A DNA stretch of 64,000 nucleotides from Candidatus Nealsonbacteria bacterium (GTDB lineage Bacteria; Patescibacteriota; Minisyncoccia; Minisyncoccales; RBG-13-42-11): the NCBI GenBank assembly GCA_026396115.1, contig JAPLXL010000005.1:66967-130966 (forward strand), given 5' to 3'. Position 1 is the first letter of the stretch; each line of letters begins with the position of its first letter. Below the pieces are notes generated by a model that worked only from the letters and a program-made list of their open reading frames with translations, was not told the DNA's origin and ran no database searches. Shown piece after piece: positions 28,773 to 43,670 of this stretch. A program made the translations under genes and the position numbers.

Positions 28773-28806
28773 AAAAAGTCGAAAAATTAATTAAGAAATA
28801 AAAAAG
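28773..28806 (+). repeat. junction repeat type D (variant)
   Basis: aaaaagtcgaaaAATTAATTAAGAAATAAAAAA. Confidence 0.4.
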
Positions 28807-28838
28807 GTTGCTAAAATTTAAATTATATTTTAAAAATT

Positions 28839-29159
28839 ATGGCATTAATTAAATGTCCAGAATGTGGACACGAAGTCTCTGATGAGGCTTTATCTTGTCC
28901 AAACTGTGGTCATCCTCTAAAATCAATAAATCAGATTACACAACAATCACCTGTTACAATTGAGCAAACTGCGAAAAAATGGAAAGTGGTCAAGCTTGTA
29001 TCAGCTATATTTATGATTATCGGGCTCTTCCTTTTTCTTAGGGGCTTGTCAGCGGGAGGATTCGAAAATGCTAAAACCGGTCTAGGCTTTTTTATTGCTT
29101 TTGTGTCATTTATAGGTCTTTTAGTTGGTAAATTCGGGGCGTGGTGGACTAATAGATAA
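28839..29159 (+). CDS. zinc-ribbon membrane protein
   Basis: CPECGHEVSDEALSCPNCGH followed by two TM helices. Confidence 0.6.
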   Translation: MALIKCPECGHEVSDEALSCPNCGHPLKSINQITQQSPVTIEQTAKKWKVVKLVSAIFMIIGLFLFLRGLSAGGFENAKTGLGFFIAFVSFIGLLVGKFGAWWTNR

Positions 29160-29192
29160 TTTTTTACTTGATCAAATATTAACTGTTGCTGA

Positions 29193-29297
29193 TCTTTGGA
29201 GATCAGACCTCGTAATAAATACGAAAAACAAATCGACCAAATGGTTTATAAACTCTACGGCCTCACTCCGGAGGAGATAAAGATTATTGAAGAATAG
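29193..29297 (+). pseudogene. C-terminal remnant of a Type IIG/Eco57I-like R-M (or PglX-like) methyltransferase
   Basis: The open frame after stop 29190-29192 reads SLEIRPRNKYEKQIDQMVYKLYGLTPEEIKIIEE*. This is the characteristic LVYxLYGLTxEEIxIIE tail of that family. No upstream body is present. Confidence 0.55.
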
Positions 29298-29301
29298 AAT
29301 A

Positions 29302-30066
29302 ATGATGATTATAAAATGGGAGAAAATTAAATCTTTGCTTTTATTAAAATCGAATTGGTTTTTTATTATTTTTTTATTAACTTCTGCGGTTTTTATATTA
29401 TGGTTATTTTATATTTTTGGACACCAAATTTTTATAGAGACAATAAATGAATTCTTTCCTTGGGACGGCTGGAATACCGTATCTGCAATCGCTCTAATTA
29501 TTACAGCTATTGCGATTGGATGTCAGGCTTATTATACAAGAAAATATATGGAATTTGCGGTGACACCAAAGGTTTTTTTTACTATTCGGTCTATTGCGAG
29601 ATTAGAGTTAGAAGAAAAGTTTAAAGAGATCATCAATTTCTCCGAAAGAGAAAAATTAATTAAAGAAGAGTTAAATAAAAAATCTATAGATGAAAAACTG
29701 CAAGCTTATTTTTTTGTTAAAAATAACTCAAAATTTCCAGTTCTGTTTAGAGTGAAAATAGATTATAAAGACGAAGGACGAATAATAAAACACGTTAATC
29801 ATTATTGGGGAAACCCATTACATATTTATCCTGGTCTTATGCGGTATCCAGGTGTTATTGTTTTAAAAGACGTAATAGGCCCTGATAAAGATTATAAAGG
29901 AAAAACAATTATTGCTCATATTATGTATACTTATAGTCCAAGATTTGCACCAAGAATAAACTATGGAACATTTTCGGAACCATGGTGTTTTGATTTAGAA
30001 GAATTTAGATGGAGTGGACCAGAGGGTATTAAAGAAGAAAATCTAAACATCTTTAAAAGAGAGTAG
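29302..30066 (+). CDS. membrane protein (2 TM) with C-terminal soluble domain, hypothetical
   Basis: The track start is TTG 29287; I prefer ATG 29302. No recognisable motif. Confidence 0.5.
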   Translation: MMIIKWEKIKSLLLLKSNWFFIIFLLTSAVFILWLFYIFGHQIFIETINEFFPWDGWNTVSAIALIITAIAIGCQAYYTRKYMEFAVTPKVFFTIRSIARLELEEKFKEIINFSEREKLIKEELNKKSIDEKLQAYFFVKNNSKFPVLFRVKIDYKDEGRIIKHVNHYWGNPLHIYPGLMRYPGVIVLKDVIGPDKDYKGKTIIAHIMYTYSPRFAPRINYGTFSEPWCFDLEEFRWSGPEGIKEENLNIFKRE

Positions 30067-30107
30067 CTATATCTTGATTTTTTATTCATTACTAAAACAA
30101 GCCAAAC

Positions 30108-30140
30108 AAAAAGTCGAAGAATTAATTGAGAAATAAAATT
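30108..30140 (+). repeat. junction repeat type D
   Basis: aaaaagtcgaagAATTAATTGAGAAATAAAATT, immediately followed by ATG 30141 (15-codon uORF). Confidence 0.55.
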
Positions 30141-30180
30141 ATGGAAGAAGAAAGAAAACAAATCTGTAAAAATATGCCCT

Positions 30181-31260
30181 ATGTCTGATCCAGAAATACC
30201 TAAAATTGTATATTTATTTGGTGCAGGGGCAACTCATGCTGAAAAATTGCTTGAATGCAAAATAAAAGGAACTGGATTCAATGAACTCGGAGAATTAGAA
30301 AGGGGTGGTCTACTTGCCAGTGATATATCCAAGAGAGTGATTGATAAATTATTCCACGATAAGCCAGAAATTGCTAACGATTATGGCATTACCAAATTAT
30401 CCATTGATGATCCTAGACTAATCGAAAATGCAGATATCGAATTATTAATTTCGTTAGTTGAGACCTTAAAAACTGATAAATCTGAAAATGATGTTAAATT
30501 CTTAAAAGATTTTTTTAAAAAGGAGATTTCCGAAAACCTTTTAGTGGATGGAAATAATATTATTCCGAGATTATATAGTTCACTGCTTGAACTTCATGGG
30601 TTAATAGGGCACGAAGAACAGCTTATTGGATTTTTAACTTTGAACTACGATTCACTTTTTGAAAAATCATTTGAATTAATTAATAAAATACGATTTAATT
30701 ATGGATTGGCTATTGGAAATCCACCGATAAGTTGTAAACCAGAAGATTCTTATTTACTGAAATTGCATGGATCTTTCGATTGGTATCTCGATCTAGATAA
30801 TAATAAAATTATCATATCGACAAAGCAATCCGAGGAGCCACTATGGATTCCCCCGAGATTAAATAAAGAATATCTTGATTACCCATACAATTTAATTCAT
30901 GGAAAAGCATACGAATTATTAGGTCAATGTGATATTCTAAGGGTAGTAGGGTGTTCGTTAAATCAAAATGATATTAGATTGATTTCGTTATTATTCAAGA
31001 CCCAGAGGTTGAAACGATTAAAACCATATTTGATAGAAATTATTTCTCCTCCGGAAGCATGCCTTGATATTATTAAGAGATTAGGTCTTATTTTATCTTT
31101 TGACGAATCTTTCTATGATAAAGGATGGAATAAGTTTGGGATCGATGCTGATAATTCTTTTTTAGACTGGCTTTATTATAGGGCTATGAATATACGAGAA
31201 AAAATATCATTAGAAGAAACAATATATTTAAAAGATGTAGAAAAATGGATAAACTTATAA
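30181..31260 (+). CDS. SIR2-like (SIR2_2 family) protein, putative NAD+ hydrolase effector
   Basis: KIVYLFGAGATHAE, FLTLNYDSLFE, LLKLHGSFDW, LRVVGCSLNQND. These match the Gly loop plus the N/D and H catalytic positions of defence SIR2 proteins. Confidence 0.7.
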   Translation: MSDPEIPKIVYLFGAGATHAEKLLECKIKGTGFNELGELERGGLLASDISKRVIDKLFHDKPEIANDYGITKLSIDDPRLIENADIELLISLVETLKTDKSENDVKFLKDFFKKEISENLLVDGNNIIPRLYSSLLELHGLIGHEEQLIGFLTLNYDSLFEKSFELINKIRFNYGLAIGNPPISCKPEDSYLLKLHGSFDWYLDLDNNKIIISTKQSEEPLWIPPRLNKEYLDYPYNLIHGKAYELLGQCDILRVVGCSLNQNDIRLISLLFKTQRLKRLKPYLIEIISPPEACLDIIKRLGLILSFDESFYDKGWNKFGIDADNSFLDWLYYRAMNIREKISLEETIYLKDVEKWINL

Positions 31261-32303
31261 AATTTAGCAAAAAAAGAGAAGTCGAATCTTGGAAAGTTGT
31301 AGATTTGATATCAAAAATAGAATCCGGAGAGCTTGATTTAGATACCGAATACCAAAGAGACATAATATGGTCAAAGTCTAAAAAAGCATTGCTGATAGAT
31401 TCAATATTAAAGGATATTGATATACCAAAAATTTATTTAGCATATTTTTTAAAAGAAAAAAAATATGAATGTATCGATGGAAAACAAAGAATCGCGTCAG
31501 TTTTAGATTTTTATAATAATGTTTTACAAACAACATCAGGAGAACGTTTTAAGGAGTTGCCAGATAAAAATATTTTTTTAAATTATCAGTTTTCTGTAAG
31601 TATTATTCGAGAACCTACACCTCAAGATATTTCTGAATTATTCTATAGATTAAACATAGGAGTCCCATTAAATGGGGGGGAATTAATTCATGCGATGAGA
31701 GGAGACATGATAGATTTTATATTTACTACAATCGGGGAAAAGGGACCGTTTATTGGTAAAGTAGGCATGAAACAATATAGGTTTTCAAGAGAAATTGCCC
31801 TAGCACAAATCATTATAAACTCAATTTTTTTTAGAGGAACGGGTGATTTTGTTAGAGCTAGATATGAAGACCTTTATAAATTTTTGAGCAAAGAAGAAAA
31901 TATAAAATTTGATTCAGTCGTTATAAAAAAAGTTAAAAAAATTGAATCAATCTTGCTTGAACTTGAAAGAATTTTTGGAAAAGACATTACTAGACTTAAC
32001 AGAAAATCAGCCATAGTATCTGCATATTTATTTTGCGAAGAAATGATAGAAAAAAAGAGCATAAAAGATTTAGAAAAATTCCCACAATTCTATTTACAAT
32101 TATTGGATGAGATAAAACAACAGGCGAATTTAATAAAAAAATATCGTACGCCTACAAAAAAAATACTCCTTGAAAGATTTCAAAAAAATCTTCAACAGGC
32201 TTCTGTTGAAGGATATTCAATAAAACGAAGACAAGAATTTTTAGAGGAAGCGTTTACCTATTATCTAAAAAACGGTAAAATAATAGGAGATAATATTACT
32301 TAA
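31245..32303 (+). CDS. DUF262 (ParB-like NTPase, GmrSD N-terminal type) protein
   Basis: LDTEYQRDIIWSKSKKALLIDSILKDIDIPKIYL, YECIDGKQRIASVLDF, LFYRLNIGVPLNGGELI. No HNH/DUF1524 half. 16-nt overlap with the SIR2 gene. Confidence 0.75.
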   Translation: MDKLIKFSKKREVESWKVVDLISKIESGELDLDTEYQRDIIWSKSKKALLIDSILKDIDIPKIYLAYFLKEKKYECIDGKQRIASVLDFYNNVLQTTSGERFKELPDKNIFLNYQFSVSIIREPTPQDISELFYRLNIGVPLNGGELIHAMRGDMIDFIFTTIGEKGPFIGKVGMKQYRFSREIALAQIIINSIFFRGTGDFVRARYEDLYKFLSKEENIKFDSVVIKKVKKIESILLELERIFGKDITRLNRKSAIVSAYLFCEEMIEKKSIKDLEKFPQFYLQLLDEIKQQANLIKKYRTPTKKILLERFQKNLQQASVEGYSIKRRQEFLEEAFTYYLKNGKIIGDNIT

Positions 32304-33538
32304 TTATTCCGCCATATTAAAACACTTTCTCTCGAAGGATTTCTTTTAAACCGTTGCATTTGCTGGGCGCTATTTCCCCTATATCTTGCAGTGAATATGG
32401 CATCGGTTGATAAACCCACTTGCTCTCCTATATCTGCTAATATTTTATCAACTGGGACATTGATACCTCCAAACCTGACATTACTTACAACAAGGGCGAT
32501 TTTCCCATTCTTCTTTAGGCAGTTTTTCATTCGAAGCAACGAAAGATACATATCTTCGAAATATCCTTCAATCATCTTTGGAACTTGTGAATTATTTAGT
32601 CCAGCCTTTCTAATTTTATTAATTAACGCATCAATAATTCTTGGCTTTTTATAGCCGTTTGCTTCAAATTGCTTTTTTGCCTCAACGTGAGATCTAAGAG
32701 TGTTATATCTAATCTTTTTTAGTTCATCATGATTTTTAATAAAGCCCACAATTAATTCGAGCCCGTATATTCTTGTATAGTCATGTCTATTTGGATATGG
32801 CGGAGAAGTAATGATCGCATCGAATTTTCTTTTTGTCTTCAATACTCTCGAGTCTGATATTTTAGCACCTACCTTTACGTCTGGAAATTTGAAATCATTT
32901 ATAAATTTCCCAACGTCATTAATCATCGCCTCAATCTTTAATAAAAATTGCCTAGTTACCTCACCATTAATAATTGTTTTTTTCTTAATCCGGAGAAAGC
33001 CGCCCGATTTTGAAGTGTTACTTACCGATTCTAAGATACTTAGCAATCCTAACATATAAAAATCTCTTACCTTAGGATTCCTAATTGTATCAATCTTGGA
33101 TTTTAGGCAAAGTAATTCTTTTTTTGTATTAGGACTAAAAGCTTCCCGTATGATTTTGATATCAGGTAAATCAATGTTTTTTCGTGATAAAAATCCCTTT
33201 TTGTAAAATCTTCCAAGATATCGCCTTAAAATTATAGGTTGATAGTTTCTTGTTTTGACATTAGATAAGAAAACAGAAAAAGGAAGTATGTCAAAACCTT
33301 CGGAATAAATGCCCATCTCCTTACATGCAAGAAGGGTCGTGCCGCCGCCACAGAAGGGATCCAAAACCCATGAATTTCTGCCAAGATTAAATTCGTCAAT
33401 CAACTTTTTTACCAATTCTCCGGAGTAGCTATGTTTAAAAGCATACCAGTTGTATCTTGGTTTATTACGGTCACTAAAAGGGGATATAAGTGGACCATAT
33501 TCATTTGTTTTTACAACAAGAGGAACGGTAGTAGGCAT
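32300..33538 (-). CDS. DNA methyltransferase (N6-adenine / N4-cytosine type)
   Basis: VLDPFCGGGTTLLA (motif I) precedes AIITSPPYPNRHDY (motif IV). I prefer ATG 33538 over the track TTG 33613. 4-nt tail-to-tail overlap with the DUF262 gene. Confidence 0.75.
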   Translation of the reverse strand: MPTTVPLVVKTNEYGPLISPFSDRNKPRYNWYAFKHSYSGELVKKLIDEFNLGRNSWVLDPFCGGGTTLLACKEMGIYSEGFDILPFSVFLSNVKTRNYQPIILRRYLGRFYKKGFLSRKNIDLPDIKIIREAFSPNTKKELLCLKSKIDTIRNPKVRDFYMLGLLSILESVSNTSKSGGFLRIKKKTIINGEVTRQFLLKIEAMINDVGKFINDFKFPDVKVGAKISDSRVLKTKRKFDAIITSPPYPNRHDYTRIYGLELIVGFIKNHDELKKIRYNTLRSHVEAKKQFEANGYKKPRIIDALINKIRKAGLNNSQVPKMIEGYFEDMYLSLLRMKNCLKKNGKIALVVSNVRFGGINVPVDKILADIGEQVGLSTDAIFTARYRGNSAQQMQRFKRNPSRESVLIWRNN

Positions 33539-33684
33539 ATTGCTTTCGTAGCGAGAAAATCTTATTATATTATAACAAATTGTGCAGTTTATGGTAAGAT
33601 AAACGTCGGACAAGGTATATTGTACAACTTTCTATAAATAGATACAAAATAAAAAAGTTGAGTTTATGAGAATGAGGCAAAAAA

Positions 33685-33708
33685 TACCAAATTTAGCCAG
33701 AAGTTGAG
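33685..33708 (+). repeat. junction repeat type C
   Basis: taccAAATTTAGCCAGAAGTTGAG. Confidence 0.45.
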
Positions 33709-33734
33709 AAAATTCACTGAAATTTTTATTAAAA

Positions 33735-34484
33735 ATGATCTTTTTAAAAAATCTACAAAGATATAAAAATGTAATTCATGGAGTATTGGAGAGAAAAGAC
33801 GGTTCAGTCAATCCATTTTCTAATCCTAGGACCGAGGAGAATATTTTAAGGGCTTTAAAGAAGTTGGGATATAAAAATGCTGAGGTTGATAATTTAATTT
33901 TTGCCGATCAAGTTCACGGCAAGAATATTTATTTTTGTCCTCCGGGTGTTGGAGGTTATATCAAACTGCAAACTGACGGATTGATAACCAAGACCTCGGG
34001 TCAAATTTTGGTAATTAAGAGTGCTGATTGTTTACCAATTTTAATTTATGATCCGAAACAAGGGAAAGTGGGAGCAATTCATGCCGGGAGAGAAGGTATC
34101 ACGAAGGGAATTATTGAAATGACTATCAAGGCCTTTGATTCTCAACCATCCTCTTTGATTGTAGGAATTGATCCTCATATTAGAAAGTGCTGTTATTACT
34201 TAAAAAAGGAAAATGAAAATTTAACCCAGGAGTCTGAGCTGAAAAAGTATATTCAAAAGAGGAATGGGAAGTTCTATGTTGATTTAACTCAGGTTGTGAT
34301 TGATAAACTTTCAAAATTTGGGGTTAAAAAAGAGAATATTGAGGATTGCGGTATTTGTACTTTTTGCCAGACCGAGAGATTTTATTCGGCCCGCAAAAGA
34401 GAAAAGCAGCCAGAGATTTATCAAAAAGAAGAAGAACGATTTCCTTGTTTTGGAAGTTTTATTGGATTATTGCCAGAGAATTAA
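33735..34484 (+). CDS. pgeF: YfiH/PgeF (DUF152, laccase-domain) purine nucleoside enzyme / peptidoglycan editing factor
   Basis: FADQVHGKN, VIKSADCLPILIYDP, GAIHAGREG, and C-terminal CGICTFC. Confidence 0.8.
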   Translation: MIFLKNLQRYKNVIHGVLERKDGSVNPFSNPRTEENILRALKKLGYKNAEVDNLIFADQVHGKNIYFCPPGVGGYIKLQTDGLITKTSGQILVIKSADCLPILIYDPKQGKVGAIHAGREGITKGIIEMTIKAFDSQPSSLIVGIDPHIRKCCYYLKKENENLTQESELKKYIQKRNGKFYVDLTQVVIDKLSKFGVKKENIEDCGICTFCQTERFYSARKREKQPEIYQKEEERFPCFGSFIGLLPEN

Positions 34485-34520
34485 AGCAGATGCACAGAAC
34501 AAAATTAAAGAACGGTAAAT

Positions 34521-34546
34521 AATCAAAATTTAGGCCGAAGTTGAGG
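34521..34546 (+). repeat. junction repeat type C
   Basis: AATCAAAATTTAGGCCGAAGTTGAGG. Confidence 0.55.
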
Positions 34547-34610
34547 AAATTTACTAAAATTATGGGAAATTTGCCAAATTTTAACACAAATAAATCACAG
34601 ACAAGAAGGC

Positions 34611-34695
34611 TTGACAAGGGTTTTGGATTTGGTATACTTAAAATAGTTAATCCCACCGCTTTCTCGGTTCGCCGGGACAGCGGTTTTTATTTTTA
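34611..34695 (+). ncRNA. orphan promoter-terminator unit (possible ~50-nt sRNA)
   Basis: TTGACA, 16 nt ending in TGg, TATACT. About 15 nt later comes ACCGCT-tt-CTCGG-ttcg-CCGGG-aca-AGCGGT + TTTTTATTTTT. No ORF. Confidence 0.3.
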
Positions 34696-34823
34696 TGAAA
34701 AAAACATTATGTAGGGATTCCTAAGGGCCAATCGTACGGTCTTTCAAGTGTTGCCGACGATGTTAGATTATTAAGGTCGAAAGAAATAGAACAATTTTTA
34801 CCCGCATCGCTTATATAAAATTG

Positions 34824-34910
34824 AGAGAAAATGGGGTCAACTCTATTTTTAACAAAAAGTCGGAGAATTAATTGAGCCCATCCGACAAGCTCAAGGTAAA
34901 AAATAAAATT
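34824..34910 (+). repeat. junction repeat type D (long form with mini-ORF, plus a 24-nt insertion)
   Basis: aaaATGGGGTCAACTCTATTTTTAACAAAAAGTCGGAGAATTAATTGAg encodes MGSTLFLTKSRRIN*. The same block occurs at 37426-37487. Confidence 0.55.
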
Positions 34911-35315
34911 ATGGAAAGAGAACAAGTCGGTATTATATTTAGGAATAGTAAAGGAGAAATCCTTCTGCAACACAGAGATGAAAAGGCTCCAAGATACCCA
35001 AATTGTTGGGGATTTTTTGGAGGAAGAATAGAAGAAGGAGAAAATCAAGAATTAGCATTAAAAAGAGAGGTAGAGGAAGAATTAAAAATAAAAATAGAAT
35101 CTTATTATTTTTTTAAAAAGTATGACCTGAGGGATGGACAAGGCGATATTCGGGAATATTTTTATATTGCTCCTTTAAATACGGTTATCGAAGATTTAAA
35201 AAAGAATTTAAGTGAGGGAAACGACTTAAAATATTTTTCACTGGGGAAAATAAAGGAATTAAATACCCCAGATTACGAAAAACCTGTTTTTGATGATTTA
35301 TCTAATATCGCTTAA
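34911..35315 (+). CDS. NUDIX hydrolase
   Basis: ATG 34911 follows the type D repeat. Nudix box GFFGGRIEEGENQELALKREVEEELKI. Confidence 0.8.
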   Translation: MEREQVGIIFRNSKGEILLQHRDEKAPRYPNCWGFFGGRIEEGENQELALKREVEEELKIKIESYYFFKKYDLRDGQGDIREYFYIAPLNTVIEDLKKNLSEGNDLKYFSLGKIKELNTPDYEKPVFDDLSNIA

Positions 35316-35341
35316 TTCAAAATTTAGCCCGAAGTTGAAGG
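35314..35341 (+). repeat. junction repeat type C
   Basis: AATTCAAAATTTAGCCCGAAGTTGAAGG, starting at the stop codon. Confidence 0.55.
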
Positions 35342-35412
35342 AAAATTATGAAAAATTTTTAAAAGAAAATAAAATATTTGAAATCAAGGAAATCAAAAAG
35401 TAAAATAAAAAA

Positions 35413-35912: not shown

Positions 35913-36485
35913 ATGGAGGAGATTGAGGTTAAATTTTTGAATATTGACCCCGTTTTAATAGAAAAGAAACTGTTTGAATTGGGAGCCAAGAAAATTTTTG
36001 AAAAATTATACAGAAGAAGGGTTTTTGATTACCCCGATTACAGATTGGATAAATCTGGAGCTTGGTTAAGGCTTCGTGACGAAGGAGAAGAAATAACCCT
36101 TACCTTCAAACAAAGACTGGGCATGAAAAAAGGCGGAAATGGCAACGATATAAGCACGGAGGAAACCGGCATTCGGGTTAATGATTTTGATGCTACCGTC
36201 AATCTGCTATTAAAATTGGGCTTTGTGGAAAAGCATTATGTAGAGAACAAAAGAATAAGATATATGCTGGACGATATCGAATTTGATATAGATTTTTATC
36301 CAAAACTCGAACCGTTTATTGAAATCGAAGCTCCTTCATGGAAGAAAATTGATGAGGCGATTAAATTGCTGAACTTTGACCCAAAAGATAAAAAAATATT
36401 TTCCGCAACCCAAATTTATGCTCAAATGGGCATAATCGTCGACGATTACAAAGAAATAACTTTCGAAAGAATAATAAAGAAGTAA
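35913..36485 (+). CDS. CYTH-domain protein (class IV adenylate cyclase / triphosphate tunnel metalloenzyme)
   Basis: EIEVKFL N-terminal ExExK motif, LRLRDEGEEITLTFKQ. Confidence 0.75.
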   Translation: MEEIEVKFLNIDPVLIEKKLFELGAKKIFEKLYRRRVFDYPDYRLDKSGAWLRLRDEGEEITLTFKQRLGMKKGGNGNDISTEETGIRVNDFDATVNLLLKLGFVEKHYVENKRIRYMLDDIEFDIDFYPKLEPFIEIEAPSWKKIDEAIKLLNFDPKDKKIFSATQIYAQMGIIVDDYKEITFERIIKK

Positions 36486-36540
36486 TCAAAATTTAGGTCG
36501 AAGTTGAAAAGTCGCCAAGAAGGCAGTTTTTTGGTAGAAT
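36484..36540 (+). repeat. composite junction repeat C+A
   Basis: AATCAAAATTTAGGTCGAAGTTGAAAAGTCGCCaagaaGGCAGttttttGGTAGAAT. TAGAAT ends 6 nt before ATG 36547. Confidence 0.6.
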
Positions 36541-36546
36541 AAAAAC

Positions 36547-37386
36547 ATGAAAGAAAAAATTAAGCTAGTTTTTAAGACTATCTTTTTAATCGCCATAGTT
36601 TCGACGATAGCGATGTATTGGTATGACCAGTATAATTATTATTTTGGCGAATATTACGAATATACACTTGATTGTCCCTTAGGGAGCAATGTCGCCCTCA
36701 TAAAAATACAGGGAGAAATAGTTACTTACGGGACAGAATTAGTTGATTCAGAAAGCTCAGAGACAGTATCTGAAGATATAACATCGTCGGAAACAGTAGT
36801 TGAATATATAAATCAGATAGAAGGAGACGACTACATGGAGGCAATAATTGTAGAAATAGATTCGTATGGAGGCTCACCAGTAGCCTCTGAGGAGATAATG
36901 AATGCTTTAAAAAGAACTACAAAGCCAACTGTTGCGGTAATAAGAGAAGGTGGGGTTTCCGGGGCTTATCTTATAGCTTCGGGGGCTGATATAATATTTG
37001 CCAGTGAAATGTCAGACATAGGGGGAATCGGAATCACAATGTCTTATCTAGATTACTCTCAACAAAACAAACAAGAGGGCATAATCTATCAACAATTATC
37101 CTTGGGTAAGTTTAAGGATACGGGAGATCCGGATAAAAATTTAACGACTGAAGAAAAAGAGCTTCTTATGAGAGATATAAAGATACTACACGAAGCTTTT
37201 GTAAGAAGAGTGGCTGAAAACAGGGGATTAGATATTGAAAAAGTTGAAAAGTTAGCAGATGGCTCCACGATGTTGGGAATAGCCGCCAAGGAAAACGGGC
37301 TTATTGATGAAATAGGGGATATAAACGACGCAAAAAATTGGCTAAGAGAACAGTTTACGATAGAGCCGGAAATCTGTGTTTATTAA
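36547..37386 (+). CDS. sppA: signal peptide peptidase SppA (36K type, S49)
   Basis: N-terminal TM. IVEIDSYGGSPVASEEI, GVSGAYLIASGADIIFA, LSLGKFKDTGDP. Confidence 0.8.
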   Translation: MKEKIKLVFKTIFLIAIVSTIAMYWYDQYNYYFGEYYEYTLDCPLGSNVALIKIQGEIVTYGTELVDSESSETVSEDITSSETVVEYINQIEGDDYMEAIIVEIDSYGGSPVASEEIMNALKRTTKPTVAVIREGGVSGAYLIASGADIIFASEMSDIGGIGITMSYLDYSQQNKQEGIIYQQLSLGKFKDTGDPDKNLTTEEKELLMRDIKILHEAFVRRVAENRGLDIEKVEKLADGSTMLGIAAKENGLIDEIGDINDAKNWLREQFTIEPEICVY

Positions 37387-37425
37387 AATATAAAACAAAC
37401 TAAGCCGATGAAAGAAAAACAGGCA

Positions 37426-37487
37426 TAAAAAATGGGGTCAACTCTATTTTTAGTAAAAAGTCGGAGAATTAATTGAGAAATAAAAAT
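37426..37487 (+). repeat. junction repeat type D (long form with mini-ORF)
   Basis: aaaaATGGGGTCAACTCTATTTTTAGTAAAAAGTCGGAGAATTAATTGAGAAATAAAAAT encodes MGSTLFLVKSRRIN*. Confidence 0.55.
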
Positions 37488-37841
37488 ATGTCTAAAATGA
37501 CTATAAAAGAAGCTCAAGAAATTGTTGATAAGTGGATTAACACAACCGGGGTGCGATATTTTTCTGAACTCACAAATTTAGCTCAATTGGTTGAGGAAGT
37601 AGGTGAGGTTGCTCGAGTTATATCCAGAACTTATGGTGATCAGAGTTTTAAGAAATCAGAAGAGGGCAAAAAATTAGCTGATGAATTGGCGGATGTGCTT
37701 TTTGTACTTATATGTCTTGCCAACCAAACAGGTGTTGATTTAACAGAAGCACTTCAGAGGAATATTGAGAAAAAGACAAAAAGAGACAAGAATCGGCATC
37801 AAAATAATCCAAAATTAAAAAATCAAAACGTCAAAAATTAA
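37488..37841 (+). CDS. MazG-like nucleotide pyrophosphohydrolase
   Basis: LVEEVGEVARVI, ELADVLFVLICLANQTGVDL. The stop TAA lies inside the next type D repeat. Confidence 0.8.
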   Translation: MSKMTIKEAQEIVDKWINTTGVRYFSELTNLAQLVEEVGEVARVISRTYGDQSFKKSEEGKKLADELADVLFVLICLANQTGVDLTEALQRNIEKKTKRDKNRHQNNPKLKNQNVKN

Positions 37842-37859
37842 TTGAGAAATAATAAAAAT
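37826..37859 (+). repeat. junction repeat type D
   Basis: aaaacgtcaaaAATTAATTGAGAAATAATAAAAAT. Confidence 0.5.
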
Positions 37860-38447
37860 ATGGCAGAAGTTAAAGTTTTAATTGAAGGTTATACAACAGC
37901 CGATTCAGTATCCTCAAGCGGAGAAGAAAAAACATGCCCAACAATTACATTGGTGAGAGACGGAGATATTATTATGGTTGTTGACCCAGGAGTATTAGAA
38001 AATCAAAAAATGTTGGTTGATAAATTAAAAAAAGAAGGCCTAACAATAGATGATGTGAATGTTGTTTGTATAACCCATTCTCACATTGATCATTATAGGA
38101 ATATAGGCATGTTCCCTGAAGCAAAGACATTAGAATATTTTGGTTTATGGGACAGAAACACAGTGGAGGACTGGAAAGAACAATTTACAGAAAACATCCG
38201 GATTATAAAAACGCCGGGTCATAATTATGATTCAATAACTCTTCTTGTTAAAACAGATAATGGTATTGTCGCTATATGTGGAGATGTTTTTTGGAAAGAA
38301 GATTTCCCCAAAGACGATCCTTATGCTTCGGATAAAGAAAAGTTAGAAGAGAGCCGTAAGAAAGTTTTAGAAATGGCAGATTATATAATTCCTGGTCACG
38401 GAAAGATGTTTAAAGTTAAAAATAATCAAAATTTAGACCGAAGCTAA
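37860..38447 (+). CDS. MBL-fold metallo-hydrolase
   Basis: ATG 37860; the track TTG 37842 lies in the repeat. ITHSHIDHYRN, PGHNYDS, GDVFW, PGHG. The last 8 codons are encoded by a type C repeat. Confidence 0.8.
   Translation: MAEVKVLIEGYTTADSVSSSGEEKTCPTITLVRDGDIIMVVDPGVLENQKMLVDKLKKEGLTIDDVNVVCITHSHIDHYRNIGMFPEAKTLEYFGLWDRNTVEDWKEQFTENIRIIKTPGHNYDSITLLVKTDNGIVAICGDVFWKEDFPKDDPYASDKEKLEESRKKVLEMADYIIPGHGKMFKVKNNQNLDRS
38424..38445 (+). repeat. junction repeat type C overlapping a CDS 3' end
   Basis: AATCAAAATTTAGACCGAAGCT encodes NQNLDRS*. Confidence 0.5.
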
Positions 38448-38451
38448 ATTT

Positions 38452-38470
38452 GTTTAGGCTGAGCCTAAAC
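38452..38470 (+). other. 8-bp perfect hairpin
   Basis: GTTTAGGC-tga-GCCTAAAC. No T-run follows. Confidence 0.4.
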
Positions 38471-38520
38471 TTGGAGCCCATTTCAAAGGATAGTCGATTG
38501 AGAGGATTAGTTTCTTTAGA

Positions 38521-38571
38521 TTTGCATAGTTTTGCATACTATTTGCATAGTTTTGATTTTTTTGGTATGAT
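38521..38571 (+). promoter_or_regulatory. three TTTGCATA(G/C) direct repeats overlapping a promoter (candidate operator)
   Basis: Repeats at 38521, 38531 and 38542 (10- and 11-nt spacing). The third provides TTGCAT as the -35. 17-nt spacer ending in TGg, then TATGAT. ATG 38578 is 6 nt downstream. Confidence 0.5.
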
Positions 38572-38577
38572 TATTTT

Positions 38578-39297
38578 ATGGATAAGGAACTTTTAACCAT
38601 TGGCGAAGCCGCTGAATTTCTAGGTGTTTCTATCGATACATTGAGACGCTGGGATAAAAGCGGTAAGTTAGTTGCGACTCGAAAAGAGGGAGGAACGCAC
38701 CGGTATTATTTGAAAGGGGATCTGGCGCTTTTTTCTAGCGACTTATTGAAATTGGCAAAGGATTGGGCTTTTTCCGGAGGAGATATACCTCCAGAGTTTT
38801 ATTGCTCAAATAGCGCGATTTTCCAGGCAAGATTGTTGAGAATGCAGGATGTGCTTATAGCTTCTAAGAAAGCTGATAAGATTTTTTCTCTTATTGTCGC
38901 AGTGACCGGTGAGATCGGTAATAATTCTTATGATCATAATCTTGGTAATTGGCCTGACATGGCTGGAGTATTTTTTGGTTATGATATTAATAAAGGCACC
39001 ATTGTCTTAGCGGATCGGGGATTGGGTATTCTTGGAACATTAAGAAGGGTAAGACCTTCGCTTGCTAATCATCAAGACGCTCTTTTAGTTGCCTTCACAG
39101 AAATGATTTCTGGCCGAGCGCCTGAGAATCGTGGAAATGGTTTAAAGTTTGTTCGTAAGATTATTTCGGAGAACCCCATTGATCTGTTCTTCCAGAGCGG
39201 CGATGCTGAATTAAAAATGAAAGGCAATAATCCAAAGTTGGATATAGGGAAATCCAAGACCAATATTATAGGATGCTTTGCAATTATTAACTTTTAA
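38578..39297 (+). CDS. MerR/excisionase-type HTH fused to GHKL (HATPase_c-like) ATPase domain
   Basis: LLTIGEAAEFLGVSIDTLRRWDKSGKL, then GEIGNNSYDHN (N box-like), DRGLGI and NRGNGLKFV (G boxes). Confidence 0.6.
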   Translation: MDKELLTIGEAAEFLGVSIDTLRRWDKSGKLVATRKEGGTHRYYLKGDLALFSSDLLKLAKDWAFSGGDIPPEFYCSNSAIFQARLLRMQDVLIASKKADKIFSLIVAVTGEIGNNSYDHNLGNWPDMAGVFFGYDINKGTIVLADRGLGILGTLRRVRPSLANHQDALLVAFTEMISGRAPENRGNGLKFVRKIISENPIDLFFQSGDAELKMKGNNPKLDIGKSKTNIIGCFAIINF

Positions 39298-39307
39298 TCT
39301 CAAAAGT

Positions 39308-39577
39308 ATGATTATTGAACTAAAAAAATTTGGGAATACTCTCATATCAAGGCAGGCCGGACGAGAAGCATTTGCCGCATTTCAGCCGACCTTGCGCGAT
39401 GTTAATCCGGCAGAAAAGCTTGAGATAGATTTTGAAGGTGTTTTAACGTTTTCTCCCTCATGGGCGGATGAGTTTCTTACCCCGCTTATAAAAGAATTTG
39501 GCGATCGAGTTATTCTGCGTACTACCGATAATCCTTCTGTAAAGGCAACGTTGGAGATCTTGGAAAAAAGGAATTAA
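39308..39577 (+). CDS. DUF4325 (STAS-like) protein
   Basis: 89 aa. SRQAGREAF...LEIDFEGVLTFSPSWADEFL is typical of the STAS-like DUF4325 partner of GHKL ATPases. The stop lies inside a type D repeat. Confidence 0.6.
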   Translation: MIIELKKFGNTLISRQAGREAFAAFQPTLRDVNPAEKLEIDFEGVLTFSPSWADEFLTPLIKEFGDRVILRTTDNPSVKATLEILEKRN

Positions 39578-39615
39578 TTGAGAAATAAAATTAACTAATC
39601 AATTTTAGCCAAAGC
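39564..39615 (+). repeat. junction repeats D then C (degenerate)
   Basis: aaaaaaggAATTAATTGAGAAATAAAATTaactAATCAATTTTAGCCAAAGC. Confidence 0.45.
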
Positions 39616-39642
39616 ATTTAAAGGAGAAATATAAAACAAGCT

Positions 39643-40395
39643 ATGTTTAAAGCTAAAACAGATAAAATTTTCAAATTATCACAAGAGCATGCCGAAGTTG
39701 TAAAAGAATTAGAAGGAACTTTCGGCAAAAGAACGAATATCTATATTGATTTTGCAAATGTTATCCGTTGGCAGGAAAAACTCAATTGGCATATTGATTT
39801 AAAAAGATTAAAACAATTTTTCGATTCTTTTGATACAATAAATTTAGTTAAATTTTATAGCGGTACATTAGTTGGAAATATAGCATCTGAGAAATTTATA
39901 GAAGAGATAAGAAGTATGAAATACGATGTTCACACAAAACCAGTAAAAATAATGAAATTATCAATTGATGTTTCCAGTATTCCTGCAAATTCACCCGCAC
40001 TGCTTGAAAATTTTATAAGAAAACCGTTATTAAAAGAATTTAATCTTGAGACAATAGAATATTTGAATAAAAAACTTAAAGAATTAAACGATAAAGGCAT
40101 CAAATTTATTCAAGATAAAAAGTGCAATTTTGATGTAGAAATCGGGAGAGATATGCTTATTGACTATGAGAGAAACGACATTGATAATTTTATTTTATGG
40201 AGTGGTGATAGTGATTTTGCGGATCCAGTAAGTCAGCTTTTAAAAGACGGAAAGAAGGTTGTCATTTTCGGCACTGCAAGGAGAATTTCGCCAGAACTTT
40301 CAAATACTGGCGCTCAAATATTTGAAATTAAAAAGATAAAAGAATTTATTTGTTGGCCCAGAGAAAGCCAAAAGGACCCATTGCTGGGCCCTTAA
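39643..40395 (+). CDS. NYN-domain (LabA/PIN-like) putative ribonuclease
   Basis: IYIDFANV, ILWSGDSDFADPVSQLLKDGKKVVIFG. Confidence 0.7.
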   Translation: MFKAKTDKIFKLSQEHAEVVKELEGTFGKRTNIYIDFANVIRWQEKLNWHIDLKRLKQFFDSFDTINLVKFYSGTLVGNIASEKFIEEIRSMKYDVHTKPVKIMKLSIDVSSIPANSPALLENFIRKPLLKEFNLETIEYLNKKLKELNDKGIKFIQDKKCNFDVEIGRDMLIDYERNDIDNFILWSGDSDFADPVSQLLKDGKKVVIFGTARRISPELSNTGAQIFEIKKIKEFICWPRESQKDPLLGP

Positions 40396-40495
40396 GCTTT
40401 AGATTTTTGGTTAATTTTCGTTAACCAATTTTAATATATCAAAATGAATAATGTCTGTCAATAGTGACACATTGTGGATAATTTTCAATTTAAAT

Positions 40496-40511
40496 AATCA
40501 AAATTTAGCCC
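40496..40511 (+). repeat. junction repeat type C (truncated)
   Basis: AATCAAAATTTAGCCC. Confidence 0.4.
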
Positions 40512-40627
40512 ATATTAAAGAAAAAAATTAAGAACGCAAACCGCCCATCGCTGGGCAATTTTTATTTTCGCCCGAGAGTTTTTCCCGGGTTTTTGTTTTG
40601 CGGGCGATAAAGCTATAATAAAATAAT

Positions 40628-42073
40628 ATGAATTCTCTCAAAGATCATCGTACCAATTGGATACACATTTTAATTTGGGTGGTTTTAGTCTCGATCGTTG
40701 GCGGAGGAATTTTAGTTTATACGATGAAGGGACCAGAAAAAGAAGTTAAAGAAAAAAAACCGCCAAGCATTGGTGAATTAGAAAAAGAAGTTTTAGCTAC
40801 CAGCTACAAAAAAGAATATACATATGTGGGTAAACCGGAAGGAATGGTAAAGTTAGTGATAAAGAACAATTTAAATAAAAGCATTTGTTTTGAATCTTGT
40901 AATACTTATTATCCTCTCCAGAAAAAAGATACACGCTGGAAAAATGTTTATGAAAAAGCTTGTGAGATAAACCCTGTTAAAGAATGTATCAGCCCAAATG
41001 AAACTAAAATATTCGAATACGTTACTATTTGGAAAGAAAAGGGAATTTTCAAGTTCGCAGTTCCTGTTTGTGTTGATTGCGAGAACTTGATGAATTCGAG
41101 TTTCCGAGAAGATGGAATAATCTACTCCAACGAATTCACGGTTACAAAATTAAATGTTACAGAAGAAACGAATCTATCGTTAAAGGTTGAAATAGACCAG
41201 AATGACATCTCTTCCTACAGAGATTTTATCGAAAACAACAAGCAATATCAGAAACCAATATCAATGACTGAATTGCGGCGTCAAATTGAGAATGCCAGGG
41301 CCTATCTCGAAACTAATCCTTCGGGCAAGATTACTGATGATTTGAGAGAAAAAATTATTGAGGAATTAAACATAGGCTTTCTATTAGACGGACTTACCGA
41401 GAGAGAATTAGCAGTAACTACCGTTGCTTCGCAAGAGTATGAAGAATATATTGAAAAAGAATTGTTATTTGAAGACCCGCAAGTTGGAACTTTTTCTGCT
41501 CTACTTTTGATTCCTAAAGAGAATAAATCATATCCGGCAATTGTGGGCTTACATGGTCATGGCGATAATAACTATATTTTCAGAGACAAGTATCTTGGTA
41601 AAGAATTGGCAAAAGAAGGATTTGTAGTAATCATGCTTTCATTCAGGGCTATGTTTTGCGATGAAATAGAAAACAATATCAGCGAAGAATTGCTTTCGAA
41701 TAACTTTAGTTTAATGGGGCTGAGAGTTTATGAGACACTACTTCTGATAAAATATCTGAAATACAATGATTTTGTTGATGAGTCCAGGATAGGTATTATG
41801 GGCCATTCCGGCGGCAGTGATACGGCAAATTTAGTTTCAAGAATAAGCCCTGATATCAAGGCAGGAATTTATGATTTTGACACAGATATGCTTAATGTTT
41901 GTGGTGAGAGAGGAATTCATTGCGAAACAAACCCGGGTCTGGGCTATTATAATCCTCAAATAAATGACCGTTCTACATTAGGGTTTCCCTTTCGCATGTT
42001 TGAGTATGGTTATCCTGGCGAAAATGATAAACAGGAAGTAATAGAATTCTTTAAAGAAAAACTAGGGGAATGA
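40628..42073 (+). CDS. membrane-anchored alpha/beta hydrolase (dienelactone hydrolase/esterase-like C-terminus)
   Basis: N-terminal TM. C-terminal HGHGDN and nucleophile elbow GIMGHSGGSD. Confidence 0.55.
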   Translation: MNSLKDHRTNWIHILIWVVLVSIVGGGILVYTMKGPEKEVKEKKPPSIGELEKEVLATSYKKEYTYVGKPEGMVKLVIKNNLNKSICFESCNTYYPLQKKDTRWKNVYEKACEINPVKECISPNETKIFEYVTIWKEKGIFKFAVPVCVDCENLMNSSFREDGIIYSNEFTVTKLNVTEETNLSLKVEIDQNDISSYRDFIENNKQYQKPISMTELRRQIENARAYLETNPSGKITDDLREKIIEELNIGFLLDGLTERELAVTTVASQEYEEYIEKELLFEDPQVGTFSALLLIPKENKSYPAIVGLHGHGDNNYIFRDKYLGKELAKEGFVVIMLSFRAMFCDEIENNISEELLSNNFSLMGLRVYETLLLIKYLKYNDFVDESRIGIMGHSGGSDTANLVSRISPDIKAGIYDFDTDMLNVCGERGIHCETNPGLGYYNPQINDRSTLGFPFRMFEYGYPGENDKQEVIEFFKEKLGE

Positions 42074-42077
42074 AAAT

Positions 42078-42620
42078 ATGAAAACTAAAATTTTTGGAGG
42101 TAAGAAAATTACAATAAAGAAACTTTCAAAAAAAGATTTAAGAAATGCTAAAGAGTTTCAGGATTTTATTAATTCTTTGATTGAAGAAAAAGCTCAGATT
42201 TTACTTAATAAAAAATTATCGTTAAAAGAAGAAAAAGAATGGTTAAAAAGACGATTAGGACAAATTAAAAACCAAAAAACAGTTTTTCTATTGGCAGAAT
42301 GCGACAATAAGATCATTGGAACTACCGGCATTGATTTGGGCAGGGGGCGAGAAAACCACGTGGGAAACTTTGGAATCACCATCAGAAACGGTTATCGAGG
42401 AATTGGCTTGGGAAAGCATTTAATGAAAGAAATACTTAAATTGGCCAAAAAAGAATTACAGCCCAAACCAAAAATCATTAGATTAAGCGTTTTCTCCACT
42501 AATAAGCCGGCTATCGGGCTTTACAAAAAATACGGCTTCAAAAAAGCAGCCAGAATCCCAAAGCAACTCCAAGATAAAGGAAAACTATTAGATGAAATAA
42601 TAATGCTTTTAGAATTATGA
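42078..42620 (+). CDS. GNAT family N-acetyltransferase
   Basis: IRNGYRGIGLGKHLM (motif A), YKKYGFK. Confidence 0.8.
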   Translation: MKTKIFGGKKITIKKLSKKDLRNAKEFQDFINSLIEEKAQILLNKKLSLKEEKEWLKRRLGQIKNQKTVFLLAECDNKIIGTTGIDLGRGRENHVGNFGITIRNGYRGIGLGKHLMKEILKLAKKELQPKPKIIRLSVFSTNKPAIGLYKKYGFKKAARIPKQLQDKGKLLDEIIMLLEL

Positions 42621-42672
42621 AAAGAGAAATTGATGTATTAGTAAGGGCAATTATTGAAATAATCTGAAAACA

Positions 42673-43638
42673 ATGAAAACTAAAGAAATAAAAACCCGCG
42701 AATTAAACGCTGGAAAATTTATAAAAGAAAAAATAGAAGAAATATCAAAAACAGTAGGAAGTAATTCTGCCATTACTGCTTTGTCTGGCGGCGTAGACTC
42801 TTCGACCGCTACTCTGTTGGGGCACAAAGCATTGGGCGAGAAGCTCAAAGTAGTTTTCATTGACAATGGTTTAATGCGAGAGAATGAACCGCAAAAAGTG
42901 GCTTCAATGTTCGAAGAATTAGGGATTCTTGTTGAGATAATCGATGCCAAAAAACAATTCTTCAATGCCTTGAAAGGCGTTACTGATCCGGAACAAAAAC
43001 GAGAAGTTGTTACCCGAACTTTTTATAAAAAGATTTTTGCTAAATTAGTTAGAGAAAGTGGAGCAAAATGTCTTTTACAAGGAACCATTTTAACCGATAT
43101 AGAGGAAACCATTGCTGGCATCAAAAGACAGCATAATGTCTTTGAACAATTGGGTATTGATCCTGAAAAAGCATTTGGATACAAAATTATAGAACCGTTA
43201 AGACAGCTTCGCAAAGATGGTGTAAGAAAGATTGCCAAGGTTTTGGGTCTGCCAAAATCAATATATGAGAGAATGCCTTTCCCCGGGCCAGCTCTGGCCG
43301 CCAGAATAATTGGAGAAGTGACCCCCGAGAGAATAAAAATAATAAGAAAGGCAACTGCCATCGTGGAAGAAGAATTAAAAGAAACTGGTGCCTTCCAATA
43401 CTTGGCAATTTTACACCATGACCGAGTCACCGGAATAAGAAATAGGAAAAGAGATTTTGGACTCCAAATTGAAATCAGATGTTGGGAAAGTGTTGACGCG
43501 AGAACGGCAGCGCCAACCAGGTTGCCCTACGATATCTTAGAAACGTTGGCAAAAAGAATGACAAATGAAGTCCCCGGTGTGGTAAGTGTAACTTATAATA
43601 TAACATCAAAACCGCCTTCAACCATGGAAGCTATTTAA
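42673..43638 (+). CDS. guaA: GMP synthase ATP-pyrophosphatase subunit (subunit B, stand-alone)
   Basis: PP-loop ALSGGVDSS. C-terminal dimerisation region FPGPALAARIIGEV, ITSKPPSTMEA. No GATase domain in the ORF. Confidence 0.85.
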   Translation: MKTKEIKTRELNAGKFIKEKIEEISKTVGSNSAITALSGGVDSSTATLLGHKALGEKLKVVFIDNGLMRENEPQKVASMFEELGILVEIIDAKKQFFNALKGVTDPEQKREVVTRTFYKKIFAKLVRESGAKCLLQGTILTDIEETIAGIKRQHNVFEQLGIDPEKAFGYKIIEPLRQLRKDGVRKIAKVLGLPKSIYERMPFPGPALAARIIGEVTPERIKIIRKATAIVEEELKETGAFQYLAILHHDRVTGIRNRKRDFGLQIEIRCWESVDARTAAPTRLPYDILETLAKRMTNEVPGVVSVTYNITSKPPSTMEAI

Positions 43639-43642
43639 CCTT

Positions 43643-43670
43643 AAATCGAAGAATTAATTGAGAAAAAATT
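43643..43670 (+). repeat. junction repeat type D
   Basis: aaatcgaagAATTAATTGAGAAAAAATT followed by ATG 43671. Confidence 0.5.

Follow-up and report, generated by a model that had tools for sequence, protein, structure and literature searches.

Two short repeat families at the gene junctions of a Patescibacteria accessory array are candidate punctuation modules and coincide with breaks of homology between strains

We analyzed a 64,000-nucleotide (nt) stretch of a Candidatus Nealsonbacteria contig (JAPLXL010000005.1, positions 66,967 to 130,966; this whole stretch is called the window below), in which two families of short repeats, C and D, occupy the junctions between small accessory genes. 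An earlier reading made from the letters alone (the sequence-only reading) had proposed that these repeats write the ends and starts of open reading frames (ORFs) and that genes are shuffled between them as cassettes. Our results support this proposal: the repeats lie at gene junctions and not at random positions, and related strains differ by structural changes that they bound. We consider that C and D are portable stop-then-restart punctuation modules of Patescibacteria accessory arrays which double as recombination joints, and we give this reading a probability of about 0.58. No description of the C or D motif strings, or of such repeats in the candidate phyla radiation (CPR), was found in the literature searched.

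Family D has the consensus AAAAAGTCGAAGAATTAATTGAGAAATAAAATT-ATG and adjoins start codons. All seven positions first assigned to it held in repeat and 22-mer searches. A repeat finder recovered six copies (28769, 30104, 34850, 37451, 37820 and 43636), the seventh being at 39571, and the 22-mer, with at most 3 mismatches, matched the window three times against 0.03 expected. Within TAATTGAGAAATAA of D, the stops TAA, TGA and TAA fall in three different frames inside 14 nt, as had been claimed and as can be read directly from the sequence. The MazG and DUF4325 genes do end on a repeat-borne TAA, and the MBL, MazG, NUDIX and nitroreductase genes, together with the upstream ORF (uORF) ahead of SIR2, start right after a copy (Table 1). 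In other loci, all three D-borne stops serve ORFs of at least 80 amino acids. The ATG had been described as standing at a fixed distance; a position 8 to 16 nt after GAG turned out to be the mode and not a rule. In the window, three copies have 10 nt between GAG and ATG, the copy at 37824 has 13 nt and the one at 43640 has 8 nt; past the repeat at 28773 the ATG comes after 34 nt, and the copy at 39571 has no ATG. D sits within operons, with neither a promoter nor a terminator.

Family C, TAATCAAAATTTAGGCCGAAGTTGAG, adjoins stop codons, and it also holds TAA, TAG and TGA in three frames, a feature that the sequence-only reading did not report. Its 24-mer matched the window four times against 0.00 expected. 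Of the seven copies described earlier, six were recovered by the repeat finder (33679, 34516, 35310, 36479, 38419 and 40491). The seventh, at 39597, is a distinct variant, C2 (TCAATTTTAGCCAAAGC...AAAGGAG), in which the TTGAGG block of C is replaced by a canonical AAAGGAG. The MBL gene ends NQNLDRS* inside C, as first seen; it gains these 7 codons because one A is missing from the usual AAAAAATAA stop context. A terminator hairpin often follows C (at 36505 and 40543 in the window), and the arrangement of C plus hairpin found at 40491 is also present in four other loci (L075, L079, L087 and L104). The distance from C to the next ATG ranges from 0 to more than 100 nt.

Neither family resembles a structured RNA or a promoter. 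Both fold no better than shuffled sequences (z of -0.49 for C and +0.78 for D), and they lack self-complementarity. Rfam 15 gave no hit at C or D in the window, either at gathering thresholds or at E<=1, and no hit in 137 kb of module-rich loci, and a known RNA family was rejected on these grounds. A scan for sigma-70-like promoters gave no match at C or D. We also rejected a phage origin, as IMG/VR contains no match to C and just 5 to D, which are likely due to chance and whose contexts were not inspected. Two further candidates were rejected for D. As a sigma-70 or extended -10 promoter (TTGAGAAAT, compared with TGGTAGAAT of the third junction element, family A), it lacks the key -11 A. As a remnant of a protein C terminus (..AKQKVEELIEK*), its frame stays open over a median of 18 codons, and just 4 of 99 copies reach at least 80 amino acids; left arms, when extended, have no consistent start codon, and K/E/R substitutions are expected of a purine-rich tract. 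Alignment scores of D against family A and of D against C exceed those of shuffles for some copies only.

The two families are restricted to the accessory part of the window. Together they amount to 14 copies, all at 28.7-43.7 kb, in a single orientation and at junctions only. Nearly all ORFs at 24-46 kb point in the + direction; a methylase gene (32300-33613) occupies the - strand. The ORFs of this stretch encode a type III restriction-modification pair, SIR2 and GmrSD, YfiH, NUDIX, DUF5654, CYTH and SppA proteins, MazG, MBL, a MerR-like protein with DUF4325, NYN, a hydrolase, GNAT, a PP-ATPase resembling GMP synthase, a nitroreductase and RNase T. The rest of the window is made up of housekeeping genes (sigma factors, a class II tRNA synthetase, a formyltransferase, EF-P, a Mur ligase, an MraY-type transferase and glutamine synthetase). 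Either a canonical GGAGG site or a family A copy stands ahead of these genes, and no copy of C or D was found in these approximately 48 kb. Partial D-like pieces occur beyond the range given above, TTTTAATTGAGAAAAA ahead of a canonical GGAGG (46454-46470) and AAAAGTCGAAG ahead of a hairpin (48949-48959), so the module-bearing stretch may reach about 49 kb.

This distribution bears on the idea that C or D is a DNA uptake signal for the competence machinery. In other bacteria, uptake sequences often lie just downstream of genes; the known ones, such as the DNA uptake sequences (DUS) of Neisseria and the uptake signal sequences (USS) of Haemophilus, are dense, genome-wide and found in both orientations. 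Patescibacteria are naturally competent (PMC10633639). The 14 copies seen here are few, occupy 16 kb of the 64-kb window, share one orientation and are missing from housekeeping regions, and we regard an uptake signal as hardly credible.

Next, the occurrence of the modules was examined in other genomes. A scan with a D 20-mer, using one genome per species, yielded 33 stretches. Of these, 16 loci with 18 copies belong to metagenome-assembled genomes (MAGs) labelled Nealsonbacteria, Parcubacteria, Patescibacteria or Saccharibacteria, plus one labelled Anaerolineaceae. The flank ..TCGAA, on which the hits had not been selected, was present in 13 of the 18 copies of Patescibacteria-labelled loci versus 1 of the 17 hits in other phyla, and an ATG within 5 nt of D was found in 12 of 18 versus 1 of 17; the 17 hits in other phyla are best taken as chance matches. 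C occurred 16 times in the same D-selected loci, always on the strand of D. Co-oriented arrays were seen in L018, L005, L025 and L051, and in L018, which is from a complete genome (CP179888.1), six consecutive junctions between small genes are D, D, D, C, C and C+D. The modules are nearly identical across genomes beside unrelated genes; the CYTH and NUDIX proteins encoded beside C in the window and in L005 are only 27-29% identical.

The exact C 21-mer was present in at least 120 metagenome contigs, from which 80 loci (446 kb) were sampled; this sample was chosen on C and is independent of the D-selected set. An ORF of at least 50 amino acids ended at 64 of the 70 C copies, and 31 of these 64 ORFs stopped on a codon borne by C (19 on the TAA of TAATC, 11 on an internal TAG and 1 on a TGA). 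Relative to C, the ratio of same to opposite strand was 56:0 for the D core, 23:0 for C2 and 48:2 for family A. The placement at gene junctions, co-oriented with the genes, thus holds in 20 Patescibacteria loci as well as in the 80 metagenome loci. The 91 flanking ORFs of the latter matched 90 Pfam families, all small accessory enzymes, such as GNAT, PD-(D/E)XK and SNase nucleases, nitroreductase, MazG, HD, Macro, AbiJ and PIF1; none of the 25 flanking families listed is core machinery. Among 150 random ORFs of module-bearing contigs, the leading families were DUF3800, NYN, DNA methylases, NUDIX, GNAT and Mrr.

Comparison of related strains showed structural variation bounded by the repeats, as the sequence-only reading had anticipated. 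L001 is 98.4% identical to the window and collinear with it, and L048 is 100% identical to 37868-44826. L049 is 96.7-98.2% identical to the window at 37835-39570, that is, from the D core (37836) to one base before the next D (39571). Outside this block, L049 has DUF3307 and a 154-amino-acid ORF where the window has MazG and NYN. The DUF4325 gene, at the border of the block, ends with its native EKK* in L049 and with a D-written EKRN* in the window. Elsewhere in L049, the 3' end of YfiH and a C copy are followed by a histidine phosphatase gene at the place of the NUDIX array of the window. L002 is 97.5% identical to the window at 37310-38425, where identity stops at the first base of the C copy; it resumes at 28791-28855, to the right of the D copy at 28773, so that MBL is followed there by the Zn-ribbon gene. 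The two partners of this joint share AAATAA only, so it is not a chimera of assembly induced by a repeat.

In nine contigs whose neighboring genes differ, the MBL gene forms a unit framed by D and C. Three kinds of upstream junction (D, D with a hairpin insert, and family A) and four kinds of downstream junction (a C variant with a MerR gene, C with a promoter/short-hairpin module, a hairpin-split C, and the upstream region of the Zn-ribbon gene) assort independently among them. The homologues keep their own module variant, GAAATAATAAAAAT-ATG, which travels with MBL. The MBL-fold protein (37860-38447; 187-195 amino acids) has more than 2,700 homologues, and those at 75-96% identity span many CPR lineages, with neighbors that vary between contigs. 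A copy with 80% identity is carried by a DPANN archaeon (Diapherotrites, L041), with unrelated neighbors and with neither C nor D. Judged from these sequence matches, MBL appears to be a single gene that was exchanged very widely and recently.

To quantify the coincidence of breakpoints and modules, we took as breakpoints the ends of BLAST high-scoring segment pairs (HSPs; identity of 85% or more) that fall in the interior of both contigs (n = 534, from 149 loci totalling 898 kb); such ends give only approximate crossover positions. Of these breakpoints, 24.3% lay no more than 10 nt from a core of C, D, A or C2, versus 2.3% of random positions (maximum 3.9% in 200 trials), an enrichment of about 10-fold. 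Junction space, which makes up 19% of the sequence, holds 69% of the breakpoints; even within it, 32.7% lay within 10 nt of a core versus 12% at random (maximum 16.3%), a 2.7-fold enrichment. At C, the points where homology ends concentrate on the right edge and those where it starts on the left edge, a signature of a shared joint. Module cores were present at both ends of 27 of the 163 doubly internal HSPs. The motif AAAAGTCG, which has six occurrences on the + strand of the window, five of them in D or A contexts, had been put forward as the specific breakpoint. This was not borne out, as the breakpoints concentrate instead at the edges of the C and D cores.

Breakpoints could gather at the modules merely because intergenic DNA tolerates them, if C and D were purely cis-acting expression signals under selection. 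C would then be a 3' untranslated or post-stop signal and D an intercistronic restart signal, read by a conserved Patescibacteria factor such as the ribosome, an RNase or an RNA-binding protein. Such a role would fit the strict co-orientation with genes (56:0), the position of C next to stops, often between the stop codon and a terminator, and of D next to starts, the unstructured and purine/A-rich character of both, and the canonical Shine-Dalgarno sequence of C2. However, the 2.7-fold enrichment was obtained against other intergenic positions, the approximately 48 kb of housekeeping genes in the window do without C and D and use family A and GGAGG, and the distance from C to the ATG is highly variable, 0 nt included. 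We therefore consider it unlikely that expression signals account for the two families.

The same breakpoints could also be produced by a dedicated site-specific, integron-like cassette system, with C and/or D as its sites and its recombinase encoded elsewhere in the genome. The arrays have the appearance of such a system: co-oriented, mostly promoterless and diverse single-gene units each end in a sequence of about 30 nt, like an ORF with its attC site, and units with modules on both sides recur in differing contexts. The conservation exceeds what homology anchoring alone would need, and at 39571-39630 D is directly followed by C2 with no gene between them, resembling an empty cassette. On the other hand, C and D have neither dyad symmetry nor a hairpin, HSP ends are scattered across the full width of C and not fixed at one nucleotide, and the conserved cores do not include the joint of L002. 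The ORFs of the window at 19-50 kb revealed no integrase, resolvase or transposase domain, and no recombinase was among the 25 most frequent Pfam families of the 150 random ORFs mentioned above. A site-specific system of this kind thus seems improbable. We give similarly little credence to a broader form of the idea, in which C and D would be the sites of a trans-acting factor in a phylum-wide, sequence-specific single-gene cassette system, and accessory genes, unlike those of integrons, would circulate between species carrying their own punctuation. The factor could be a recombinase, machinery linked to competence, or an RNase whose cuts at D would free leaderless mRNAs from polycistronic RNA.

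In the reading that we favor, punctuation modules that double as joints, C would be a gene-end module that begins at, or within a few bases of, a stop codon and is followed by a start codon, a terminator, or the terminator/promoter of family A. D would be an intra-operon gene-start module, consisting of three-frame stops, an unstructured A/U-rich spacer and an ATG mostly 10 nt after GAG. An A/U-rich run without structure, and then an ATG, come after C as well. Together, they would frame single genes or small groups of genes. With the same 25-40 nt at many junctions and in many genomes, they would offer short homologous stretches for the recombination of resident or incoming DNA, and one gene could be replaced, inserted or lost while its neighbors remained unaffected. 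Because the module would end any upstream frame that enters it and place the start codon of the next gene, a swapped gene would stay punctuated. We infer that the exchange occurs by homologous or short-homology recombination, plausibly after natural transformation, and not through a dedicated recombinase. Natural competence in Patescibacteria is documented (PMC10633639), and individually transferred genes between Patescibacteria were reported from 125 genomes, with no mention of such repeats (PMC12455944). The modules may in addition be needed for translation restart or 3'-end function.

Several points weigh against this reading. A length of 25-40 nt is short for RecA-dependent exchange. The joint of L002, with only AAATAA in common, suggests microhomology or illegitimate joining at that place. 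The breakpoint mapping shows only that the joint is the shared sequence, and recombination at the modules lies one step beyond it. The share of breakpoints at C is inflated, since the metagenome sample was chosen on C; the comparison contigs are mostly short metagenome assemblies, and the taxon labels of several MAGs are automatic. The variable distance to the ATG indicates that C as a whole is not a ribosome-binding site. Finally, conservation over about 30 nt across many MAGs exceeds what a weak ribosome-binding site or a stop context would need, so a sequence-specific factor may act on the modules.

C and D are accompanied by other short elements at the junctions. Family A, with ten copies in the window at 2716-45216 (for instance, at 7381-7420, 18221-18260 and 36505-36544), consists of a terminator hairpin followed by a T-run and by TG(G/A)TAGAAT; 6-8 nt separate the last of these from the ATG of the following gene. 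It is a terminator combined with an extended -10 promoter for leaderless mRNA, and its layout implies that leaderless or near-leaderless mRNAs are widespread in this organism. The fusion of C to a family A copy noticed by the sequence-only reading is present at 36484-36544, yet it is not a one-off event, because the C+A composite recurs in other genomes. Module M1 (AAAATGGGGTCAACTCTATTTTTAAC) extends the long forms of D on the 5' side, and in other contigs it precedes C or a hairpin. A mini-ORF, MGSTLFL(T/V)KSRRIN, was correctly recognized in both long forms (ATG at 34831 and 37432); it was rejected as a conserved coding unit, since M1 elsewhere lacks the ATG or is in another frame. Hairpin inserts of 31-35 nt (CCCCAGTAGTAGA...TCACTACGGGG) are found inside D after TTGAG or inside C after TAATCAA.

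These junctions, which combine C, C2, D, M1, A and hairpin inserts, are extragenic mosaics of short conserved motifs. Modules are gained or lost between close relatives, as illustrated by an 80-nt insertion with M1 in L049, by the hairpins and by the insert at 34877-34896, and the mosaics resemble those of the elements known as BIME, NIME or BOX. C and D might thus be selfish miniature insertion elements, similar to miniature inverted-repeat transposable elements (MITEs) or repetitive extragenic palindromes (REPs), that target stops or junctions and spread by transposition, recombination being a by-product. However, they show no terminal inverted repeats, hairpin or visible target-site duplication, and the opposite orientation was never found in the 80 metagenome loci; the hairpin modules found with them in relatives would match such elements better. 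Transposases of the Y1, DDE or RAYT type do not recur among the ORFs sampled, and homologous genes retain their own module variant, as MBL does. Such an origin appears very unlikely to us.

A 20-nt insert that splits one D copy (CCCNTYCGRCAAGCTCARGG; 34877-34896) has a homologue after C in L005 (6866-6884) and others after C or D in L076, L082, L085 and L110. It is complementary to both conserved blocks of C and D (TYCGRC with GYCGRA, and GCTCA with TTGAG). In the window it pairs perfectly with the D blocks GTCGGA/TTGAGC; in L005 the pairing is partly compensated, and several other copies have no upstream partner. Based on this complementarity, an H-type pseudoknot formed by the insert and the D blocks of the window is possible. 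No convincing trans partner (TTCGAC..CTCAA) for C or D was found in the window.

Table 1. Positions of the C, D and associated junction modules in the window
Feature	Positions	Strand	Remarks
D copy 1	28773..28805	+	TTAAG replaces TTGAG; just past the stop of the type III restriction res gene; next ATG (Zn-ribbon gene) at 28839
D copy 2	30108..30143	+	Consensus AAAAAGTCGAAGAATTAATTGAGAAATAAAATT-ATG; the ATG begins a 15-codon uORF overlapping the SIR2 start
C copy 1	33679..33712	+	Weak, 76% to reference; upstream of the YfiH/Cu-oxidase_4 gene
C copy 2	34516..34549	+	Consensus; after the YfiH gene; promoter and short-hairpin module next, 34611-34695
Module M1 (AAAATGGGGTCAACTCTATTTTTAAC)	34828..34853	+	5' extension of the D long form; holds the mini-ORF start
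D copy 3	34854..34913	+	Split after TTGAG by the 20-nt insert 34877-34896 (CCCATCCGACAAGCTCAAGG); ends in the NUDIX ATG (34911)
C copy 3	35310..35343	+	TAA 35313-35315 is the NUDIX stop
C copy 4	36479..36512	+	TAA 36483-36485 is the CYTH stop; continues straight into family A
Family A copy	36505..36549	+	Hairpin CGCC..GGC, T-run, then TGGTAGAAT 6 nt 5' of the SppA ATG; TG precedes the hexamer (36512-36540)
M1 + D copy 4	37429..37490	+	Ends in the MazG ATG (37488)
D copy 5	37824..37862	+	MazG stop TAA 37839-37841; ends in the MBL ATG (37860); L049 homology begins at 37835
C copy 5	38419..38452	+	Diverged; the MBL ORF reads into the copy, NQNLDRS*; L002 homology ends at 38425
D copy 6	39560..39592	+	DUF4325 stop TAA 39575-39577; no ATG, C2 directly 3'; L049 homology ends at 39570
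C2 variant (TAATCAATTTTAGCCAAAGCATTTAAAGGAG...)	39593..39645	+	Canonical AAAGGAG Shine-Dalgarno ahead of the NYN ATG (39643); variant also in L051
C copy 7	40491..40524	+	79% to reference; after the NYN gene; terminator-like hairpin GCCCATCGCTGGGC and T-run at 40543-40566
D copy 7	43640..43673	+	Ends in the nitroreductase ATG (43671)

A number of other features were observed close to the modules. The uORF that begins at the D-borne ATG (30141-30188; 15 codons, MEEERKQICKNMPYV*) has its stop overlapping the SIR2 start (ATGTCTGA); it could provide translational coupling or be a frameshifted N terminus. Downstream of C copy 2, the stretch 34611-34695 comprises a strong promoter (TTGACA-16-TATACT with TG) and, after it, about 50 nt that hold AGTTAATCCCACCGC, a hairpin and a T-run. 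A module of this type lies directly 3' of C in several contigs, with different genes beside it, and is also found in L051 (7060-7148), L070 and L114; by its layout, it looks like a tiny conserved small RNA gene. The hairpin repeat family CCCC[A/G]GTAGTAGA-loop-TCACTACGGGG, 31-35 nt long, is present in L049, L050, L025, L012, L070 and others, with no copy in the window. It also sits after module M1, and from its distribution it seems to behave like a small insertion element in the junction mosaics. Three direct repeats of TTTGCATAGTTTTGCATACTATTTGCATAGTTTTG (38520-38577) are located just 5' of the MerR-type gene, overlapping its TG-extended -10, and are kept in L049; they are probably the operator of the MerR-type regulator. 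GIY-YIG nuclease genes occur within C/D-bounded arrays of a complete Nealsonbacteria genome (L005, 4780-5322; L018, 2338-2727; CP179888.1). By analogy with the seg genes of phage T4, they could be free-standing homing endonucleases that promote exchange. An exact-protein look-up of the Zn-ribbon gene product gave no match.

Elsewhere in the window, a 102-nt direct repeat, 96% identical, is present at 44797-44898 and 46323-46424, 1.5 kb apart, with a methyltransferase gene between the copies. Two pairs of long repeats (9680-9779 with 18859-18958, and 18932-18984 with 21778-21830), 85-91% identical, extend from upstream of RadC-like genes into their 5' ends and point to paralogous RadC cassettes. 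Tandem coding repeats of 84 nt are located at 15772-16108. An Rfam match to tRNA at 11859-11996 (138 nt, 31 bits versus a threshold of 29) would imply a long intron, and ARAGORN found no tRNA in the window.

Patescibacteria are a very large, mostly uncultivated group with tiny genomes, in which many individually transferred genes have been reported (PMC12455944). A junction vocabulary of about 30 nt that is shared between genomes would give a concrete route for such gene-by-gene exchange. C and D are practical markers for variable gene arrays in MAGs, and the modules could be used as ready-made insulators or junctions in the genetics of these organisms.

C and D can be compared with several known systems. 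The BIME/REP elements of Enterobacteria, the NIME/dRS3 and Correia elements of Neisseria and the BOX elements of pneumococcus likewise form extragenic mosaics from a small vocabulary of modules, often right after stops or within operons, and they are tied to recombination and to variable gene content. Those elements are palindromic, found in both orientations and specific to a species or genus, whereas C and D are non-palindromic, strictly gene-oriented, present in many MAGs and overlap stop and start codons. In the minimal mobile elements of Neisseria and the pdif modules of Acinetobacter, single genes or small sets are also exchanged at fixed joints with no transposase inside. The homology used by the former is that of conserved flanking genes and not of short repeats; the latter rely on 28-bp XerC/XerD sites in inverted pairs on plasmids, and no Xer-like dyad is visible in C or D. 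With integrons, and with the attC clusters without integrase called CALINs, the arrays share co-oriented, mostly promoterless and diverse single ORFs, a conserved 3' element and units found in different contexts. However, an attC site is 57-141 nt long, has an imperfect inverted repeat (R''-L''...L'-R') and folds as a hairpin, whereas C and D measure 25-40 nt and have no imperfect palindrome. In addition, no IntI, attI or Pc was seen with C and D (recombinase domains were sought in the window at 19-50 kb), and the 5' side has an element of its own, D, which provides the context of the start codon.

The closest analogue is the PeSL (promoter-early stem-loop) mobile regulatory cassettes of T4-type phages, of which C and D may be a cellular counterpart. 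PeSLs are short composites of a sigma-70-like promoter and a terminator stem-loop between the small ORFs of the hyperplastic regions of T4-type genomes, where they mediate modular shuffling; homologous recombination between copies has been proposed, with nearby copies yielding mini-circles (Arbiol et al. 2010, PMC2839356; Comeau et al. 2014, PMC4122927). Both systems have short conserved sequences repeated between small, co-oriented, non-essential ORFs, and in both, when close relatives are compared, insertions, deletions and replacements have their ends on the motif, as seen here between the window and L049 or L002. Family A, with its hairpin, T-run and TGGTAGAAT, even has the terminator-plus-promoter anatomy of a PeSL. 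The differences are that C and D are unstructured stop/start junctions and not promoter/terminator composites, that their host is a cellular Patescibacteria genome with housekeeping genes and not a phage, and that they are common to many species, whereas PeSLs are found within one phage lineage. C and D would thereby extend the idea of mobile regulatory cassettes from T4-type phages to cellular genomes.

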